Shown here: positions 49,629 to 61,734 of the stretch, in pieces
Layout of the letters: every line of letters starts with the position of its first letter
Numbering within the stretch: position 1 is the stretch's first letter
Assembly (NCBI GenBank): GCA_948465965.1
Contig: CAOJYR010000002.1
Span: forward strand, 5,839-69,838
DNA from: an uncultured Mycoplasmatota bacterium
GTDB lineage: Bacteria; Bacillota_I; Bacilli_A; RF39; UBA660
DNA: 64,000 bases
Reading direction: 5' to 3'
Made by a program: the position numbers and the translations under genes
Notes under the pieces: model-generated
Databases searched by the model: none
What the model was told of the DNA's origin: nothing
What the model saw: only the letters and a program-made list of their open reading frames with translations

Positions 49629-50579
49629 TTAGTTCATCGGTTTTAACTTATTCATCATAAATACTTTATTGTCATATGAAGGATGAACATATCTCTCTAG
49701 AGTTATTTTAACACTAGAATGTCCCAAAATTTCACTTAATAGTTTAGGATCAAATCCTGACTCAACACATCTTGTTGCAAAAGTATGCCGCAGTGCATGA
49801 AAGTTATAATCCTTTATACCCAATTTTTTCATAATACGTTTGTAATAATTAAAATAATTTCTAGGTTCTATATAATTTTTAGTACCAGTTAAAAAATAAT
49901 CGGACTCATTTACATTCTTTATAGTTGTTTTAAATAAATGTGTTAAAAAAGCAGGTAGAGGAATAACTCTAAAAGAAGACATTGATTTAGGAGAATCTAT
50001 TAAAATTATTGTTTTTTGTTTTGATTTAGAATCAGAATTTTTAATTCTAGTAATCGTCTCCTTAATATAAATATTTCCATTTTCTAAATCGATATTTTCC
50101 CATTTTAATGCACATATTTCACCAATTCTAAGTCCCGTATAAAGACAAAGATATATACCTAAATTTTTAAAACTTATATTTTCTTGTAAAAATTTTTCTA
50201 AAATTTGCTGCTCTTTTTTTTCTAATATTTGTATAGAATTCTTTTTAACCTTTGGCATAGAAATAACAATATCAATTCCTGCATATTTACAAATTTGTTT
50301 TACAATTACCAATATATCTTTCACAGTCTTAGCCTCTAACTTATTAGCCAACAATTTTTCTGTAAAACTATTTACTAAGTCATTATTTAAATCTTTAATT
50401 TTAATATCTTTAAATTCTGGCAAAATGTGTGCATCAACAATATATTGATAATTAGAATATGTTGTCTTTTTACATCTGATTTTTGCACTTTTTAACCAAC
50501 TATAAACACTTTTAGAAAATTTGGTATTCACCTTTAATCCTCTATTAGAGTTTAATTGTACTCCATTATTTATCATCAT
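49629..50579 (-). mobile_element. Tyrosine site-specific integrase (phage-integrase family)
   Basis: N-terminal SAM-like core-binding domain. TGLRIGEICALKWENIDL, HALRHTFATRCVESG, LGHSSVKITLERYVH (R-H-R-Y residues). Confidence 0.85.
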
Positions 50580-53223: not shown

Positions 53224-54479
53224 TTGCTTATTACCTCCGCATTTACTACTCCATCTGAAAAATCAATATTTATTTTATCACCTTTAGAAAGATCCTCAAA
53301 AGAAGTTATAGCTCTACCTTCTTTTTTCGTAATTGTATAACCTCGCTGTAATGTCTTTAAAGGACTTAATGTCTCCAATTTTGAAATAATTTGTAAATAC
53401 TTATTTTTAGATTTTTCTACTAACAAATTAGGATTTTTCAAAATATATGAACTATTCAAATTATTAAATTCTTTTTGCTTGATAGTAACCAAATTAGTAG
53501 TACTAAACTTCAATCGATCAAGAATCGCATCAAACATCAATTCCTTAGCCTGATAAATCGCTATTGGATTTGTAAATATATATCTACTTTTTATCTCATT
53601 TAACCTCTGCATATTCATATTTGTCTTATTTTGTATCGCCTTATTACATCTAATCTTCAACTGATCAAGATAATTTTTAACATCACCTATCTGAGGAACT
53701 GCAAGCTCTGCTGCACCTGTTGGTGTTGGAGCACGTAAATCAGCTACAAAGTCAGCTATAGTAAAATCAATTTCATGTCCTACAGCACTAATTACAGGAA
53801 TAGGACAATCAAATATAGCTCTTGCTACTATTTCTTCATTAAACGCCCATAAATCTTCAATAGATCCTCCACCACGTCCAACAATCAAAGTATCTAAATT
53901 ATAACCACTAGCACTTTCTATCTGTCTCACAATATCCTCTTTAGCATTTTCTCCTTGAACTAAAGCAGGAAATAAAATAATTTCAGCTAAAGGCCAACGT
54001 CTTTTAATTGTAGAAATAATATCTTTAATAGCCGCACCAGTTGGTGCAGTAATTACCCCAACTCTCCTAGGAATCTTAGGAATCTGCTTTTTATATTCAT
54101 TTCTAAATAGACCTTCAGATTCTAATTTTTTCTTTAATTGCTCATAGGCAATATATAAATTACCAACACCATCTTCTAGCATATCATTAACGTAAATTTG
54201 ATAAGCCCCATTTGCCTCAAATACACTAATTTTACCAGTAATTAAAACTTTCATTCCATCCTGTGGCAAAAACTTAATCTTCTTAGTACTAGACGCAAAC
54301 ATAATCGCATTAATCCTACTACCTTCATCTTTTAACGTAAAATAAAAGTGCCCTCTACTATGTGCTTTAAAGTTAGATATTTCTCCCTTTAAAAACACCT
54401 CGTTTAAATTAACGTCATTATCTATTTTATATTTTATATATTTAGTTAGTTGTGTTACTGTAATATATTTATCTTTCAT
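53211..54479 (-). CDS. xseA: Exodeoxyribonuclease VII large subunit
   Basis: N-terminal OB fold ([20 protein letters not shown]), [32 protein letters not shown] 54479 follows GAGGAAGAGG. The ORF-track start 54491 is GTG. Confidence 0.9.
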
Positions 54480-54879
54480 CCTCTTCCTCACTATGATAAA
54501 TATTATCTAAAACACCATTAATCATTTTAGTAACAGCTTCTTCTGAATACTTTTTAGAAAGTTCAATTGCCTCATTAATCGCAACAATACTAGGAATATC
54601 TGTATACTTAAGTTCATAAATTCCCAAAGAAAGAATAGCTCTATCAACATTATTAAGCCTATCAATCGTCCAATCCTTCATATATTTATTCGCAAGAGTA
54701 TCAATATCTTTTTGATTTTCAAGAATTCCTTCAACACAATTATTTACATATTCATTTTCAATTTCTAATTGCTCTTTTATCAAAGATTGAGTATCAAAAC
54801 CCAACTTAGTTTTACCAAGTATATAAGTTTGATAAACCACTTTCATTATAACTTCTCTAAGTTCACTTCTGTTCTTCAT
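54469..54879 (-). CDS. nusB: Transcription antitermination factor NusB
   Basis: [14 protein letters not shown]..., [33 protein letters not shown] 54879 follows AGGTGA. Confidence 0.9.
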
Positions 54880-55161
54880 TTTAATCACCTAACTAATTTT
54901 AACATATATAAGAAAAAAAGTCACAGAACAATTGTAAAAAAATAAATTTTATTATTTATGACAGATTATTTAGGGAAAATTTATTACTTTTTTTATAAAT
55001 ATACTCAATATAATCTATCAAACTTCATAGTACCCACCTCTTATGGTGTAATATTATACTGTTTTTTTGTGCATAATAATGTAATAACGCAGAGAAAAAC
55101 AGTGCATTTTCTTCGCAAAGAATTTGATATAATTACTACATAATAAAGGTGGTATGTAGTA

Positions 55162-55260
55162 ATGAATAGAAAAATAAGACGTAGGTTAAGAAAAGATAAG
55201 GATTTAGTGTGTCTAAGAAGAAAATGTTGTAAGATAGAAAATGAAGGATTTTACACGTAG
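55162..55260 (+). CDS. Possible 32-aa Arg/Lys/Cys-rich micro-protein (MNRKIRRRLRKDKDLVCLRRKCCKIENEGFYT)
   Basis: Not in the ORF track. RBS AAAGGTGG lies 9 nt upstream. Sits in an otherwise non-coding gap of about 950 bp. Coding status unproven. Confidence 0.25.
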   Translation: MNRKIRRRLRKDKDLVCLRRKCCKIENEGFYT

Positions 55261-55704
55261 AAATATAGAACTTTTAATAAACTCATTTTAACAGTAGAAT
55301 TGGTACTGCTATGAAAAATAATTATTTATTCAATTTGCTCATACCATAAGGCAATTATTAGAGTTAGGAAATATACTAACAAAATCATTAAATCCAAAAA
55401 TAAAAGAAGTAAGTGCCATCCTTCTAAAAACACTTACCTCAACCATCTCAGATCTTAACACTTTAGAAACAAACTTTCAGTTAAGATTTGATGATTAAAT
55501 TATACACCATTTGTTCTTTGAAATCACTATTTTTATTAACTTTTTTAAACGCATTCTGCGTCTTTTAGTCATGACTATAATTTCTTGGTTTTGAGAAGAA
55601 AAAAATATGAGTCATGATTTTCATCGAATTATTTCATATTTTTCGTTTAAAACTTATTTACTTTTTTACTGTAATAATGTAACACTATCACAGTTGTCTG
55701 AATC

Positions 55705-55744
55705 TACAATATAATAGAAATTGTTAAAATTCTATTATATTGTA
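55705..55744. repeat. 15-bp perfect inverted repeat (hairpin) in the nusB-DUF402 gap
   Basis: TACAATATAATAGAA (55705-55719) pairs with TTCTATTATATTGTA (55730-55744) around a 10-nt loop. No flanking T-run on either strand. Confidence 0.7.
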
Positions 55745-55835
55745 ATTCGAAAATCACATTAATTAAAAAATATTATATGTATAATTAATGAGATTACATA
55801 TTTTTATATAAATATGCTTAAAAAAGTCTAGATAA

Positions 55836-56384
55836 TTATTTTTTCTTTTTTTGTTTACAAACAATATTATTTGTAAACAAACTTTGAAGCAATAATTTTT
55901 TATTTATATTAATTAAGAAATTTTTACCATTTTTTATTTCATCTATTATTTTTTTTGCTGTTACTATAGCTAAATTATATTCTGATTGAGTGATTTCATT
56001 TTTGCTTAAAGCATCTCTTAACTCGTCCTCATCATCTATTATAATTTTATCCCTTTGATAGGGACAATAAATAACATCCAAATATAAATCATAATAATAA
56101 GGTATATTATTTATTACACCATTTTTACGACTAATGTCAAAATAATAAAATATTACATTTCTTTCTTTATCAAGAAATACCCTACCATTATAATTTTCTT
56201 CTAATGGAGTAAATTCCACTATATAATAACCATTATCCATATATACCAAATTGCCATATTTAAATTTTTTATCTATTTCATTTATTTTTTTTATACTAAT
56301 GTAATAATTTTTAAAATTTATTAGCTTCCAATCCCAACTATTAACATAGTCCATATATGTATTATTAATAAATCTTTTTCTCAT
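55836..56384 (-). CDS. DUF402 family protein (Ntdp/FomD-like nucleotide hydrolase fold)
   Basis: YYYDLYLDVIYCP...IIIDDEDELRDALSKNEITQSEY is the DUF402 core. RBS AAGGAG upstream. Lies 90 nt downstream of the radical-SAM gene. Confidence 0.75.
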   Translation of the reverse strand: MRKRFINNTYMDYVNSWDWKLINFKNYYISIKKINEIDKKFKYGNLVYMDNGYYIVEFTPLEENYNGRVFLDKERNVIFYYFDISRKNGVINNIPYYYDLYLDVIYCPYQRDKIIIDDEDELRDALSKNEITQSEYNLAIVTAKKIIDEIKNGKNFLININKKLLLQSLFTNNIVCKQKKKK

Positions 56385-56474
56385 TTTGTAAACTCCTTAT
56401 GAAATACTTTTCATATTTTTTCTCATATTATTAAATAAAGTACTTAAGTAATAAGAAAAACAATAATGGATTTA

Positions 56475-57326
56475 TTATTTATAATATTCTCTTAGCAGTA
56501 CTAATCTTTTTTCTGACTTAGTAAGTTCAGTTTCTATTTCAGGCTTTTTTTGAATGTAATTCGTTCTATTATGAGCAAAATGATCCAATATAGTGCCATC
56601 AGGTTCAACATTAAATTTTAAATGACCCAAATTAAGTGATTTGTTTGAAAGCCTGGCTACTACTCCATTAGGAAGTCTAAAAGCAGCTTTATTAGACATG
56701 CAAAAAATTTTATCTATAGATATTTCTCTAAACATTTTTTCTAAATATTTTACCAATTGATGTTCATATGAATATTGATCAATTGGATTCATAGTATTAA
56801 CATTTACCATCATGCCCAGATCACGTGCTTTTTCAGTAATATCTATTAATGAATCAAGAGTAGGAAAACATTCTTCTGTTGTCAATAATTGAAGGAGCAA
56901 TTTACTTTTCCAATCTGCTTGTGATAAAAAAATTGAGCTATTATCAGATAAATTAGGGCGAAATGATAAAAAAATAATATCTAATATACCATCTAATTTT
57001 TCAAGGACATCCATTTTTATAGCGTTTGTAAACATTTTAACAGTAAAGCCATATTCTTTAGCTTGCTTTGCATAATCAATTACAGATGGGTGAATTGTAG
57101 GTTCCCCACCATGAAGATAAATTGTACTGAATCCGTTTTCTTTAGCAAAATTCAATGTTTTTGTAAAAGTCTCCTGATTCATCATAACAGGAGTATGAAC
57201 ATTATCATTAATACAATAAGGACAATTAGCATTACAATTCAATGTTATTGTAATGAAAAGTTCATCCAAATTAAGAATTTCAAAAGGATGAGACTTAACT
57301 TTATATTCTAATTTATTTTTTTCCAT
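56475..57326 (-). CDS. Radical SAM enzyme, minimal single-cluster type, substrate unknown
   Basis: ITITLNCNANCPYCIN (CX3CX2C) and LHGGEPTIH SAM-binding motif. Only two further Cys, so no SPASM/twitch cluster. ATG 57326 follows AGGTGA. The ORF-track start 57335 is GTG. Confidence 0.85.
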   Translation of the reverse strand: MEKNKLEYKVKSHPFEILNLDELFITITLNCNANCPYCINDNVHTPVMMNQETFTKTLNFAKENGFSTIYLHGGEPTIHPSVIDYAKQAKEYGFTVKMFTNAIKMDVLEKLDGILDIIFLSFRPNLSDNSSIFLSQADWKSKLLLQLLTTEECFPTLDSLIDITEKARDLGMMVNVNTMNPIDQYSYEHQLVKYLEKMFREISIDKIFCMSNKAAFRLPNGVVARLSNKSLNLGHLKFNVEPDGTILDHFAHNRTNYIQKKPEIETELTKSEKRLVLLREYYK

Positions 57327-57487
57327 AATAATCACCTTTTTTAAATAATTATACTTGAGAACTAATGTTTAGTTTCTTGCTAAACACTTTTTAGCGTGAA
57401 ATAATTTATTTGATAAGGGAGAAATTATTTAAAAACTTCCATATTTTTTATCTTGACATATTACCAGATGTCTTTCTTTGATAAATT

Positions 57488-57515
57488 ATTATAACATTCT
57501 CTAAAGGAAAATCAA
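57488..57515 (-). promoter_or_regulatory. Candidate sigma-A promoter for the radical-SAM/DUF402 pair
   Basis: On the minus strand, TTGATT (57515-57510), a 16-nt spacer, then TATAAT (57493-57488), starting 2 nt after the mutS stop. This leaves a leader of about 150 nt with alternative GCTAAA/TTTAGC and TTTAG/CTAAA pairings. Confidence 0.4.
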
Positions 57516-57516
57516 T

Positions 57517-60069
57517 TTATTTTGACTTTGTGACCTCTTTTTTTAAATCATATAAATAACTTAATGCTTCCATAGGCGTCATTTCCAAAGGATTAATCTC
57601 TTTTATTTTCTCTTCTACTTCATTTATTTTTGGTTCTACTTCACTTTCAGTAAGTTCAAAAAGAGATGTTTGAGTAAATGTTTCCTTTTTTACATTTTTC
57701 TTTTCATATATATTAAGTATTTCATCTGCTCTATCAATAAGTGATTTAGGAAGATGAGCAAGACTTGCTACATGGATACCATAACTTTTATCGACTGCTC
57801 CAACTTTTACCTTATGAAGAAAGGTAATCTCTCCATCTTTTTCTACAGCTGATACATGGACATTTTTTAAATGTTTCAAATCCTTTTCCAAAGAAACAAG
57901 TTCATGATAATGAGTAGAAAACATGGTTTTAGCTTTAATCTTATCATGAATATGTTCAAGGATTGCCTGAGCAAGACTCATTCCATCATATGTGGCAGTA
58001 CCACGTCCTAATTCATCAAATAAAATTAAACTATTCTCAGTTGCTTCGCTAATCGCATAATTTGCCTCTTTCATTTCAACCATAAAAGTAGATTCACCCG
58101 AAACCAAATCATCACTAGCACCAATTCTTGTAAAAATCTTATCAAAGATTGGCATAGTACAACTTTTACAAGGAACAAAACAACCAATTTGAGCCATGAT
58201 AACAGTAATGGCACATTGCCTCATATAAGTAGATTTACCAGCCATATTAGGGCCTGTTATAAGTAATATATCTGTAGTTTTATCCATAACAATATCATTA
58301 GCAATATACTTATCCTTCATAACCTGCTCAACCACCGGATGACGACAATCAATCATCTTAATCACTTTCTCATCTGTAATGGTAGGTCTTACAAACTTAT
58401 ACATATCACTAACAATAGAAAATGATTGTAACATATCTACTTCGCTAATAATCTTAGCTATTCTTTGAATTTTGGAAATATATCTTTTTACTACTTCCCT
58501 AATATCCATAAAAAGCTTATATTCCAAATTAACAATTTTCTCTTCAGCCCCTAGAATAATATTTTCTTTTTCTTTTAAAACTGGAGTAATAAATCTTTCA
58601 CAATTAGCCAAAGTCTGCTTTCTCTCGTATCCATATTCATCTTTCACTAAAGACTTTTGTCCCCGAGAAACTTCTATATAATAACCAAACACCTTATTAA
58701 AACCAACTTTTAAATTCTTAATACCAGTTCTTTCACGTTCAGTCTTTTCCATCTCTAAAATAAAGTCTTTTGAACCACTACTAATCTTCTTCAATTCGTC
58801 TAACTCTTCATTATAACCCTCTTTGATTAAGTGACCTTCATGTAGAGAAAATGGAGCATCTTCCAAAATTGTTCTTTCAAGCAAAGAATATAGTTCATCT
58901 AAAGTCTCTAACTTTTTATCATATTTAATTTCCTCTAAAATCTCTTTTATCCTAGGCAAACTTGATAAAGAACTTTTTAACTGTAATAAATCTTTAGCAT
59001 TTAAATTCCCATAAGTAATTCTTCCTGCCAATCTTTCTAAATCATAAACATTTCCAAGTTCTTTAATTAAATCATCTCTTATAATAAACTCAGTAGATAA
59101 TTTTTCAATCATATCATAACGTCTATTAATTTCACTCTTATTCGTAAGTGGATTTTCTATATTACATTTTAAAAATCTAGAACCCATAGCCGTCTTATTC
59201 TTATCAAGTAACCATAATAAACTATATTGACGCTCTCTGTTACGAAGTGTTTCAACCAGTTCTAAGTTTCTCTTAGTGTTACTATCAAACTCTAAATATT
59301 CACTACTTTTAATAATTTGACATGCCTGAAGATGATGCAAATCCCCCTTCTTAGTATCGATAACATAGTTTAATAAATGTTTAATAGTAGTAGTAATTCG
59401 AATATCTTCTATTCCCTTATAAATATACTCATAATTCTTATCATTCAACTCTTCCTTAGTAATAGTTACTAATATATTATAATTTGCTCTTAATATTTCA
59501 ACGATTTCTCTATCAATCGTATCATTAACAATTATTTCCTTAAAACCATGTTTTATAACTTCTTTTATTACTTTATCCCTATCACCTTCAATAAGCATAA
59601 CATAAACTTCTCCAGTAGAAACATCAGCAAAACTAATTCCATAACAATAATCAAAATTATAAATATTAGCTATATAATTATTACTTTTCGAATCAATATT
59701 TTCATCAATTCGAGTTCCCTTAGTCACAACTTGAATAACATCTCGTTTTACCATACCCTTTGTTTGTTTAGGATCCTCAAGTTGCTCACATATCGCAACT
59801 TTATAGCCTTTATCAATTAACTCATCTACATAATTTGCATATGCATGATGTGGAATTCCACACATTGGTACTTTCTCCTCAAGTCCCGCCTGCTTTCCGG
59901 TTAAAGTTAACTCTAAAATTCTAGATGCCAAAATTGCATCATCAAAAAACATTTCATAAAAGTCGCCTAGTCTAAAAAAGATAATACTATCTTCATAATT
60001 GTCCTTTATTTCCATATATTGCTGCATCATTGGACTCAATTTATTTCTATCTACTTCACTACGTTTCAT
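57517..60069 (-). CDS. mutS: DNA mismatch repair protein MutS
   Basis: LSPMMQQYMEIK, FFRLGDFYEMF, GPNMAGKSTYMRQ, FDELGRGTATYDG, THYHEL. 850 aa. Confidence 0.97.
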   Translation of the reverse strand: MKRSEVDRNKLSPMMQQYMEIKDNYEDSIIFFRLGDFYEMFFDDAILASRILELTLTGKQAGLEEKVPMCGIPHHAYANYVDELIDKGYKVAICEQLEDPKQTKGMVKRDVIQVVTKGTRIDENIDSKSNNYIANIYNFDYCYGISFADVSTGEVYVMLIEGDRDKVIKEVIKHGFKEIIVNDTIDREIVEILRANYNILVTITKEELNDKNYEYIYKGIEDIRITTTIKHLLNYVIDTKKGDLHHLQACQIIKSSEYLEFDSNTKRNLELVETLRNRERQYSLLWLLDKNKTAMGSRFLKCNIENPLTNKSEINRRYDMIEKLSTEFIIRDDLIKELGNVYDLERLAGRITYGNLNAKDLLQLKSSLSSLPRIKEILEEIKYDKKLETLDELYSLLERTILEDAPFSLHEGHLIKEGYNEELDELKKISSGSKDFILEMEKTERERTGIKNLKVGFNKVFGYYIEVSRGQKSLVKDEYGYERKQTLANCERFITPVLKEKENIILGAEEKIVNLEYKLFMDIREVVKRYISKIQRIAKIISEVDMLQSFSIVSDMYKFVRPTITDEKVIKMIDCRHPVVEQVMKDKYIANDIVMDKTTDILLITGPNMAGKSTYMRQCAITVIMAQIGCFVPCKSCTMPIFDKIFTRIGASDDLVSGESTFMVEMKEANYAISEATENSLILFDELGRGTATYDGMSLAQAILEHIHDKIKAKTMFSTHYHELVSLEKDLKHLKNVHVSAVEKDGEITFLHKVKVGAVDKSYGIHVASLAHLPKSLIDRADEILNIYEKKNVKKETFTQTSLFELTESEVEPKINEVEEKIKEINPLEMTPMEALSYLYDLKKEVTKSK

Positions 60070-60133
60070 TTATACTTCACCACGCTTACTATTATAACAA
60101 AAATTCATTTCAAATAAAAGAAAAAGAAAGGTT

Positions 60134-60925
60134 TTATTTCCCTTTCTTCATTAACAAAATTTTCTGATAATCATCCTCTGTTTTTTTTAAATACCTTTTT
60201 AATTCATAAATATCTGTAGTAGAATGAATATTACTTCTTAATCCTTCTAAAAAAGGTGTAGTATCCAACCCTAAATTTCTGCTAACAATAATAGACTTTA
60301 TGCTTTTATCTAATTGTTCACTAGCCTCAAGTAAACTTAAATTGGCAATAGCCCTACTTGCGCTATGATAATCTCTATTAGTAATATTACCAGTTAATAC
60401 ATGGTAATTCTCACTTATTTTCTCATCACTATTATAATTTTTTTGTAAATAATGATCAACCACACTTGAAACCAAATAATTTAAAATAGAAATATCATCG
60501 CTACATATACTAATTTGTACACCATCAATAACAGTCTCATCAAACCTTTTTATGCTTAATTTAATTCTAAAAAATTCAGTGAATTTATCTATATCCATGA
60601 AATTTTCTACATCTAGAACTAGACTTAAATTCTGATTAATAGCTCTATTAGTAAAAAGGATACTATCAAAGACATCATACACATTCCTATAGACTTTTAA
60701 CCATTCATCACAATATTTAATATATTTATTATTAGACTGCTTAATATAGCGATTATCACTCTTAGTAGAAACAACATTTATAAGATCCACATCTCCTACT
60801 ATATCAAATCCCTTACCAGACCCATTATTTACAAAAATGTAATTCTCTTTATCAGAAGTAATGGCAATATTTTCACCATTTTCTAGCACAATAACATTTC
60901 CATCATCTGTATGATAATATTTCAC
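60134..60925 (-). CDS. Hypothetical protein (263 aa)
   Basis: GTG start 5 nt after AAGGGGGGA. No recognised motif, signal peptide or TM helix. Confidence 0.5.
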   Translation of the reverse strand: MKYYHTDDGNVIVLENGENIAITSDKENYIFVNNGSGKGFDIVGDVDLINVVSTKSDNRYIKQSNNKYIKYCDEWLKVYRNVYDVFDSILFTNRAINQNLSLVLDVENFMDIDKFTEFFRIKLSIKRFDETVIDGVQISICSDDISILNYLVSSVVDHYLQKNYNSDEKISENYHVLTGNITNRDYHSASRAIANLSLLEASEQLDKSIKSIIVSRNLGLDTTPFLEGLRSNIHSTTDIYELKRYLKKTEDDYQKILLMKKGK

Positions 60926-61038
60926 ATTTATCCCCCCTTCTTCAAACAGTTACTAATTATACCAAAATAAACTAATAATGTCAAAAAAAGAGGATCTATA
61001 AAAACCTATAGTCCCCCAAACAAATGTCCCATACACTC

Positions 61039-61296
61039 TTATTTCCTATTACTCATAACCATTCTCGATTCCAATAAAGCATCGTTTTCTACTTCACATA
61101 AAGTATGATTCATAATAAAATTCATTTCTTCCTGTTTTCTATCATCTTTGGTTGGTAAAACCACTCTTTCTAGCGTATTATCACATTTTAATGCAATATA
61201 CCAATCCTGTCCAATATATACCTTTTTATAATTATCCTCATTAACTAAATCAAAGTTTTCCTTTAATACTTCTCTTTTTTGTAAATCATTCTCCAT
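61039..61296 (-). CDS. Hypothetical protein (85 aa)
   Basis: Open frame with a weak RBS. No motif. Confidence 0.4.
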   Translation of the reverse strand: MENDLQKREVLKENFDLVNEDNYKKVYIGQDWYIALKCDNTLERVVLPTKDDRKQEEMNFIMNHTLCEVENDALLESRMVMSNRK

Positions 61297-61418
61297 AAAA
61301 ATCTTGACCTTTTTTTTACTCCTGTAGCGATAGCTATTTTTGTAGTCAAAGAATTTAATAAAAAATCTTTATTATCTTCATTTATTTTTCTAAAAGTACA
61401 TAACACAATTTCATCTAT

Positions 61419-61601
61419 TTAATTTATTGAAGAAAAAGCCAATCTCATACATTCATTATCATATTTTAAAAGAAGTATCGCATCAATAACCTTATCTAAA
61501 ATTTTATAATATTCTTCTTGAACATTAGGACCTTGATCATTTAGTTTATATTGTAGTTTATCAAAAAATAAATTAATATCCTCATCTTTATCTATATTCA
61601 T
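61419..61601 (-). CDS. Hypothetical protein (60 aa)
   Basis: Strong RBS AAGGGGGG lies 7 nt upstream of the ATG. Acidic helical peptide. Confidence 0.45.
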   Translation of the reverse strand: MNIDKDEDINLFFDKLQYKLNDQGPNVQEEYYKILDKVIDAILLLKYDNECMRLAFSSIN

Positions 61602-61734
61602 AAAATACCCCCCTTATTTATAATCGTAAATCAATTTATGTTATAACATAGAAATAATTCTTTTAAAATTGTAACTAAAAAATCCTTAAAATATTAAGGA
61701 TTATTATTGATTTTAACATATTAATTTTTAAAGA

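Follow-up and report, generated by a model that had tools for sequence, protein, structure and literature searches.

The stretch of DNA examined here (the window, 64,000 nt of contig CAOJYR010000002.1 from an uncultured Mycoplasmatota bacterium) carries a compact two-gene cassette between the core genes mutS and nusB, in which a gene for a radical S-adenosylmethionine (rSAM) protein is followed by a gene for a DUF402 protein. The two very probably form one functional unit, and the DNA that carries them is an acquired accessory insert. The cassette genes, mutS and nusB all lie on the minus strand. The upstream flank is mutS (57517..60069, 850 aa; TIGR01070, 1026 bits), while nusB (54469..54888; PF01029, E 6e-32) forms the downstream flank and is followed by xseA and xseB. 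The open reading frame (ORF) of the rSAM protein spans 56475..57335, yet the upstream GTG at 57335 falls within the ribosome-binding site of the gene, and the real start is the ATG at 57326, which follows AAGGTGA, giving a gene at 56475..57326 and a protein of 283 aa. An identical 283-aa protein is on record as P0001. The DUF402 gene (55836..56384, 182 aa) begins after an intergenic spacer of 90 nt (56385..56474), as the original prediction had it. No terminator was detected in this spacer, gaps of ~40-100 nt are seen in orthologous same-strand pairs, and the two genes are presumably co-transcribed.

A promoter had been proposed directly after mutS, and a sigma-70-like element, TTGATT-16-TATAAT with a TG extension, TTGATT-16-(TG)TTATAAT, is present at 57488..57515 (-), starting 1 nt past the mutS stop. 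This site is one of five joint top scorers (10/12 matches) and the sole one with a TG extension. Yet the scan returned 24 promoter-like sites against 24.8 expected from shuffled AT-rich sequence, and the site is therefore only a candidate. The 5' leader (57327..57487 (-), ~155 nt) has no supported structure, and the mutually exclusive hairpins once proposed for it did not hold up: the leader folds no better than its shuffles (z = -0.60) and no Rfam family was matched in 55000-58000, two results that speak against a riboswitch or structured leader. An Rfam search of eight related loci likewise returned nothing beyond one RNase P RNA. A different leader of ~110 nt is shared by loci in which the rSAM gene comes first (loci are given L numbers; L005:6930-7064, L012/L013:9812-9946, L014:159-293 and L015:9806-9940) and lies downstream of a strong -10 element. 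It showed no covariation and matched no known RNA family, and the leader in the window is unrelated to it.

On the other side of the cassette, ~900 bp (~55835..54889, (-)) without a same-strand ORF of at least 50 aa separate the DUF402 gene from nusB. Just 3' of the DUF402 gene lies a near-perfect 18-bp hairpin (55705..55744 (-), inverted repeat I12) that has no T-run. The region around it (55680-55840) folds with z = -4.64 against shuffles, and the hairpin is possibly a terminator, or else it marks a boundary of the insert. Further into the spacer (54946-55835), a terminator-like hairpin with a T-run is found on the minus strand at ~55440-55395. The plus strand has, at 55162-55260, an ORF with a good ribosome-binding site for a basic peptide of 32 aa that contains Cys, MNRKIRRRLRKDKDLVCLRRKCCKIENEGFYT; it was considered as a precursor peptide and rejected, being conserved in no other locus.

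An acquired insert in a variable slot

When the window is compared with four close relatives (74-85% nt identity), DNA homology stops at 57528-57538 and resumes at 54882-54945. The strain-specific insert in the mutS|nusB slot (54946..57527, no strand assigned) is ~2.6 kb long and consists of the cassette and ~900 bp of non-coding DNA. Neither the cassette nor the spacer has a DNA match in ten loci of relatives (L112-L121), and direct or inverted repeats were looked for at the insertion ends and not found. Inside the rSAM gene the GC skew is -0.04 to -0.13, compared with -0.3 to -0.5 in neighbouring minus-strand genes. Beyond the window, the cassette was recovered on one short contig from another sample (L027), where it is 99.7% identical. 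Among the matches listed, the 119 other MutS homologues are all 88-90% identical, and the genus is thus heavily sampled. In a set of 5.8 billion proteins, the rSAM protein has its own cluster followed by homologues at 44-51%, with none between 100% and 51%, so the cassette is absent from the many close relatives sampled.

In all of the ten loci L112-L121, with MutS ~89-90% identical, the genes run queH-murC-[variable]-mutS-[slot]-nusB-xseA-xseB-...-spoIVB peptidase. In L114 and L115 the mutS|nusB slot is empty, with a gap of 4 nt left; it is occupied by a 307-311-aa protein of unknown kind in L113 and L116-L121 and by a DUF4234 membrane protein in L112, and in this comparison only the window has the rSAM-DUF402 cassette there. 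The 307-aa slot protein of the relatives was considered as an rSAM enzyme or a MutL and is neither. The cassette had been described as standing where mutL is expected, a premise overturned by the conserved order mutS-nusB-xseA-xseB, which in the ten relatives never includes mutL. The accompanying observation that the window has no mutL was correct: MutL motifs are absent, all ORFs of at least 550 aa are other proteins, and a DNGSGI motif at ~16142, tried as MutL, belongs to a PP-loop ATPase. The cassette does not stand in for mutL; it was acquired as an accessory insert in a slot whose content varies, and its presence there is best explained by horizontal transfer into a hypervariable slot between two core genes. 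The mutS|nusB junction is in this respect an integration hotspot of the genus.

Towards murC, mutS borders another slot of variable content (window 60070-61734), in which three unknown ORFs of 263, 85 and 60 aa are found. In relatives it is occupied by a Y-family-polymerase-like (IMS) gene or by unknown genes of 726 and 254 aa, and mutS is thus flanked by two hypervariable junctions. Elsewhere in the window, a tyrosine recombinase gene (Phage_integrase; 49629-50579) adjoins the SpoIVB-type peptidase gene. It occupies the same position in the closest relative, L112, while a 100-aa unknown protein is encoded there in L113-L119; being common to the window and L112, it is no part of the cassette.

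Partnership of the two genes across genomes

Metagenomes and one genome per GTDB species were sampled, and the rSAM family was found in 20 further loci, in all of which a DUF402 orthologue adjoins the rSAM gene. The pair occurs in three arrangements: rSAM before DUF402 (the window, L005-7 and L011-15), DUF402 before rSAM (L001, L008/L018 and L016) and divergent (L002-4, L010, L017 and L019-22). The pairwise identities of the rSAM proteins follow those of the DUF402 proteins (r = 0.90 over 13 non-redundant loci), and none of 2000 permutations in a Mantel test gave a value as high. A family labelled F14 was tried as xseA and turned out to consist of tyrosine recombinases, and there is therefore no shared housekeeping gene with which to calibrate the divergence of the two proteins. 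All 13 genome-collection records are uncultured-metagenome bins, including Clostridium sp. CAG:343 and CAG:571, and several point to gut samples; so far, the cassette is confined to uncultured gut Firmicutes. In a metagenome scan with a broad alignment, the back-translated pattern proved too general, and L032 and L033 alone were informative.

While mutS adjoins the pair in the window, it does so in none of the 20 other loci, and the remaining neighbours vary. Several of them are enzymes of phosphate or nucleotide chemistry. In five divergent-order loci the two genes of the pair have a NUDIX hydrolase gene (PF00293, 54 bits) between them, and in eight loci the DUF402 gene is followed by a PHP phosphoesterase gene, for which the closest models are RNase RNM and 3',5'-bisphosphate nucleotidase (pAp-phosphatase type). 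One locus group (L002-L004) has a P-loop ATPase gene beside DUF402, and the neighbours in L001 are a THEP1-type NTPase, a NUDIX gene and a second rSAM gene. The ~900-bp spacer of the window was searched for PHP or NUDIX remnants, and none were found. A 'HAD-like' neighbour (family F9) was dropped from consideration, as it has no Pfam or NCBIfam match and the label was based on a DMDGT motif alone. Mobility genes also flank the pair: L011-13 have a Mob_Pre relaxase, L010 and L014 a serine recombinase, and L020 a DDE transposase. In this last locus, an RNase P RNA gene (L020:6821-7171; RF00010, 300 bits) lies ~100 bp from the DUF402 gene, and the transposase lies beyond the rSAM gene.

The DUF402 subfamily is somewhat broader than the rSAM core family and comprises 76 clusters. 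The one sampled member that occurs without the rSAM family of the window is in L009. There (L009:106-9426, on a 429-kb contig, JGI 3300027373), an operon encodes a pair of DUF402 paralogues and, from outside that family, two rSAM enzymes, together with AAA_28 P-loop, guanylate-kinase-like, HAD, pyruvyl-transferase, FrhB-like, methyltransferase and GT2 genes. This operon is a second, larger association of DUF402 and rSAM proteins.

Catalytic features and proposed chemistry

The rSAM protein has a single CX3CX2C cluster in the motif LNCNANCPYC, followed by LHGGEPT, and matches PF04055 with an E-value of 9e-12 (45.9 bits against a gathering threshold of 29.5). CNANCPYC and LHGGEPT are kept in all seven N-terminus-covering proteins among eight family members, the eighth (P0008) being an N-terminally truncated fragment without the CX3CX2C region. 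As originally described, auxiliary-cluster cysteines are missing: C212 is the only further conserved Cys across the family, PF13186 gave no match, and the protein therefore lacks a SPASM or twitch auxiliary cluster. No B12-binding domain was matched in Pfam, and no glycyl-radical enzyme is encoded near the cassette, again as first described. Towards the C-terminus, the family has conserved motifs of its own, which include MFTNG, DGIxDxIxxS, T.NP, Y.HQ, C..NK and RLSNKSLNPGHLKY.

In an NCBIfam scan, no cut-off was reached and the matches covered the N-terminal core only. They included the tungsten (W)-cofactor maturase (56 bits, cut-off 380), NrdG2 (TIGR02495; 48.7 bits, cut-off 131), viperin (NF038283; 48.4 bits, cut-off 180) and MoaA (TIGR02668; 42.7 bits, cut-off 325); the second, C-terminal cluster of MoaA has no counterpart cysteines in the protein. 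When 1.84 billion cluster representatives were scanned with a hidden Markov model (HMM), 18 proteins scored below 1e-30, and the core family amounts to three clusters at 50% identity. To judge from its profile matches, the protein is supported as belonging to no housekeeping family, nor to any curated subfamily searched. The original prediction would have counted three findings against itself, namely a housekeeping family for the rSAM protein, a lack of co-conservation of the two genes and a mutS-rSAM order that is core synteny. The pair is co-conserved, the rSAM protein lies outside the housekeeping families searched and the slot after mutS differs across L112-L121; thus, none of the three applies.

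An AlphaFold2 (AF2) model of the rSAM protein, with a predicted local distance difference test (pLDDT) score of 82, displays alternating strands and helices in a partial barrel. The top Foldseek matches are all rSAM enzymes, and the model is about equally like BlsE, PqqE, SuiB, MoaA, viperin-like enzymes and AbmM, with template modelling (TM) scores of 0.48-0.57. The structural comparison suggested earlier, against viperin and MoaA among others, thus yields matches and prefers none of them; the likeness of the predicted fold is at the superfamily level only.

A few distant homologues place the rSAM domain in other settings. P0093 (L025:933-2336), of 467 aa, is fused to an NTP_transferase domain (34 bits, cut-off 21); upstream of it on the short contig L025 lies a fragment of a CfrBI-type restriction endonuclease gene. 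P0092 is followed by HIT-like and dNK-like genes, both of them weak matches. A phage origin of the rSAM protein was considered and rejected: IMG/VR contained no close homologue and only generic rSAM N-terminal matches, and the fold matches in BFVD were likewise generic.

The DUF402 protein contains the YYYDLYLDV...DDEDEL core noted originally, and PF04167 recognises it with an E-value of 2.6e-10 (40.8 bits against a gathering threshold of 23.9), the DUF402 domain being the only one detected and no HD domain being matched in Pfam. Its AF2 model (pLDDT 93) retrieved, at E <= 0.001, DUF402 structures only, namely RNase W, Sa1684/Ntdp, FomD, SC4828 and 2p12. The metal-ligand positions of the DUF402 family are known from RNase W, in which a Lys removes the second metal (PMC11602121). 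The metal ligands N404, D420, D424 and D437 of Pyrococcus furiosus RNase W correspond in the alignment to the invariant residues D83, D99, D103 and D118, and E121, also invariant, aligns with the metal-ligand region. Judged by these residues, the protein looks catalytically competent. At E119-E121 the protein is acidic where RNase W has the Lys that removes the second, phosphatase-type metal site, which therefore favours a phosphatase-type active site, as far as residue alignment can indicate, over one of RNase W type. In keeping with this assignment as a metal-dependent phosphohydrolase type, the bacterial stand-alone DUF402 enzymes that have been tested (Bph and SA1684) are phosphatases of nucleoside di- and triphosphates (NDP/NTP) (PMC6753144).

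Taken together, a mechanism can be proposed in which the rSAM protein, using its single [4Fe-4S] cluster and a 5'-deoxyadenosyl radical, would transform either a nucleotide (NDP/NTP) or a small molecule linked to one (NMP-X, NDP-X), and the DUF402 protein, acting as a divalent-metal phosphohydrolase, would cleave a phosphoanhydride of the substrate or product of the rSAM enzyme. The outcome of the DUF402 step would be either that phosphates are trimmed or that a nucleotide handle is removed, and in other genomes NUDIX and PHP phosphoesterases may join the unit. That the cassette is a self-contained, mobile two-enzyme unit acting on nucleotide substrates in this way is held with moderate confidence, evenly poised between acceptance and doubt. 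The earlier suggestion of a minimal rSAM enzyme paired with a nucleotide phosphohydrolase has gained from the neighbouring genes, as its nucleotide theme is reinforced by the NUDIX and PHP genes, by the P-loop ATPase of one locus group and by the nucleotidyltransferase fusion.

Several observations weigh against a nucleotide substrate. In the window, no kinase, nucleotidyltransferase, NUDIX or transporter gene adjoins the pair, and the adjacency of the PHP gene elsewhere could be mere shared synteny of related genomes. The P-loop ATPase of L002-L004 barely reaches the ABC_tran cut-off (25.1 against 25), while the HIT-like and kinase-like matches near P0092 are below Pfam cut-offs. In addition, the rSAM model is no closer to nucleotide-using enzymes (BlsE, MoaA, viperin) than to peptide-modifying ones (PqqE, SuiB), all with TM scores of ~0.5-0.57, and, by sequence, the DUF402 protein aligns only weakly with solved structures (E 0.04).

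The nucleotide-modifying mechanism leaves room for more than one biological role, and an accessory, patchy cassette suits a part in metabolism or natural-product formation as well as one in defence against viruses. A special case of it, with the role defined, is a viperin-like antiviral module, in which, when a phage infects, the rSAM enzyme would make from an NTP an analogue that terminates chains or is toxic in another way, and the DUF402 protein (together with NUDIX or PHP enzymes elsewhere) would tune or detoxify the pool or turn the product into a different active form. The strain-variable slot between core genes, the absence of the cassette from close relatives, its patchy distribution and the mobile-element genes close by would suit such a module. 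The top fold matches include viperin-like structures (TM 0.55-0.57), and viperins themselves have, in a minority of cases, a linked nucleotide kinase and, in a few, a fused triphosphatase or cyclase domain (bioRxiv 10.1101/2023.09.13.557418). The parallel with viperins drawn in the original prediction is strengthened as far as the shared logic of rSAM and nucleotide enzymes is concerned, but membership of the viperin family is contradicted by the equivalog model NF038283, on which the protein scores 48.4 bits against a cut-off of 180. Prokaryotic viperin (pVip) models from PADLOC are the sole defence matches to the rSAM protein (56.8 and 51.5 bits); however, the first spans residues 29-125, the generic rSAM core, and the second, which reaches residue 200, is no stronger than NCBIfam matches to unrelated rSAM families. 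PADLOC had no match to the DUF402 protein, the neighbours examined are housekeeping or mobility genes with no known defence genes among them, and a search of IMG/VR gave no close homologue. Moreover, with an NTP/NDP hydrolase as its obligatory partner, a triphosphate effector would be liable to be destroyed. Since viperin membership fails, no defence neighbours were seen and the obligatory hydrolase fits a triphosphate effector poorly, an antiviral module of this kind is rated as unlikely.

An RNA-directed pair, in which the DUF402 protein would be a ribonuclease of RNase W type and the rSAM enzyme would modify or repair RNA, is a more distant prospect still, although the DUF402 protein is matched best, by sequence as well as in Foldseek, by the C-terminal domains of RNase W and FAU-1. 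An isolated archaeal DUF402 domain is a potent RNase (PMC11602121), and the PHP protein associated with the pair elsewhere is closest to RNase RNM. Yet the acidic residues at E119-E121, where RNase W has Lys, speak against it, as do the NDP/NTP phosphatase activities of the tested stand-alone bacterial proteins (PMC6753144), and the rSAM protein is above the cut-off for no RNA-modifying rSAM family. With 182 aa and a DUF402 domain as its only domain, the DUF402 protein also falls outside RNase W itself. This makes the reading improbable.

It could also be speculated that the rSAM enzyme is a maturase that modifies the DUF402 protein post-translationally, as anaerobic sulfatase-maturating enzymes (anSME) do with sulfatases, and thereby creates or activates its catalytic site. 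A strict one-to-one pairing with tight co-divergence is what such a relationship would produce, and the two DUF402 and two rSAM genes of L009 would suit it as well. However, the auxiliary cluster or SPASM domain usual in protein- and peptide-modifying rSAM enzymes is missing, those DUF402 enzymes that have been characterised need no maturase to be active (PMC6753144, PMC8158854), and the DUF402 family of the window has neither an invariant Cys nor a glycyl-radical-like motif, all of which leaves the maturase reading highly improbable. Finally, that the cassette replaces mutL or serves mismatch repair is effectively refuted, for it is backed by nothing but the place of the cassette directly downstream of mutS and the absence of mutL from the window, while mutS is beside the pair in 0/20 other loci, is followed by nusB or unrelated genes and never by mutL in ten related loci, and neither protein resembles MutL.

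Returning to the nucleotide-modifying unit, its boldest form is a mobile system in which the rSAM enzyme would make a modified nucleotide or nucleoside, by a new radical reaction on a nucleotide, and the DUF402 protein would process it, joined elsewhere by NUDIX or PHP enzymes. The product might be an anti-phage effector unlike the 3'-deoxy-3',4'-didehydro (ddh) nucleotides of viperin or a secreted nucleoside-analogue antimicrobial of gut Firmicutes, an extension that we consider rather unlikely. A compact cassette of ~1.5 kb whose genes are strictly co-inherited and move horizontally is worth testing. Should a nucleotide prove to be the substrate of the rSAM enzyme, the short list of such reactions would grow by a new one, and a new antiviral or antimicrobial nucleoside might come to light in the gut microbiome; even on a conservative reading the pair offers a testable function for an orphan DUF402 clade.

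Comparison with known systems

Among single-cluster enzymes, the pVips resemble the rSAM protein of the window in being small (~280-300 aa) with a partial barrel, in their weak HMM and fold similarity to it, in their accessory distribution and in the nucleotide-enzyme neighbourhood seen in some loci. They differ in that the rSAM protein reaches only 48 bits against the pVip cut-off of 180, has an obligatory hydrolase partner in place of the occasional kinase of pVips, and is not found among known defence genes.

The phage rSAM family phrog_13987 is matched over most of its length by the distant full-length homologues P0091, P0098, P0099 and P0109; the relationship is one of superfamily to subfamily (21-31% identity), and these relatives have no DUF402 partner. 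A distant rSAM relative of 232 aa, similar to P0098 and P0109, was seen at L033:2500-11500 on a contig dense with short ORFs, mostly on one strand, that has a phage-like look. A PHROG search of the flanking ORFs of L033 gave no match and no phage hallmark gene.

On the DUF402 side, Ntdp/SA1684 of Staphylococcus aureus, Bph of Enterococcus faecalis and SC4828 of Streptomyces coelicolor share the size (~177-182 aa), fold and acidic metal ligands of the protein in the window (PMC6753144). The window subfamily is too divergent to match the sequences of Ntdp or FomD at E <= 1, and, unlike the characterised stand-alone phosphatases, it is tied to an rSAM gene.

In oxetanocin-A biosynthesis of Bacillus megaterium, the rSAM enzyme OxsB and the phosphohydrolase OxsA act jointly on deoxyadenosine mono-, di- and triphosphate (dAMP/dADP/dATP) to yield a nucleoside analogue (PMC7074753). 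This is likewise a two-gene unit of an rSAM enzyme and a metal-dependent nucleotide phosphohydrolase. Yet OxsB is large and cobalamin-dependent, whereas the rSAM protein of the window has 283 aa and no B12 domain, and OxsA is an HD-domain enzyme and not a DUF402 protein. As no sequence relationship was detected, the comparison is a functional analogy only.

In the fosfomycin pathway, the cytidylyltransferase Fom1 installs a nucleotide tag, and the DUF402 enzyme FomD hydrolyses the cytidine monophosphate (CMP) conjugate made by the rSAM enzyme Fom3, releasing CMP (PMC8158854). Here too, an rSAM enzyme acts on a nucleotide-tagged substrate before DUF402 hydrolysis, and a distant homologue of the window rSAM is fused to a nucleotidyltransferase. 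FomD shares its fold with the DUF402 protein of the window (Foldseek 5zdm/5zdn, TM 0.56-0.58) at an identity of only ~10%. The systems part in that Fom3 is a B12-dependent methyltransferase of class B, while the cassette has no phosphonate genes near it and the window no nucleotidyltransferase. Fosfomycin is also the only subject for which the text library searched joins radical SAM and DUF402, and the curated libraries searched contain neither the rSAM subfamily of the window nor its obligatory DUF402 partnership. Both proteins come from known superfamilies, and the logic of pairing an rSAM enzyme with a nucleotide phosphohydrolase has precedents, such pairs having earlier given unusual nucleotide chemistry in the form of oxetanocin, fosfomycin intermediates and the ddh-nucleotides of viperin.

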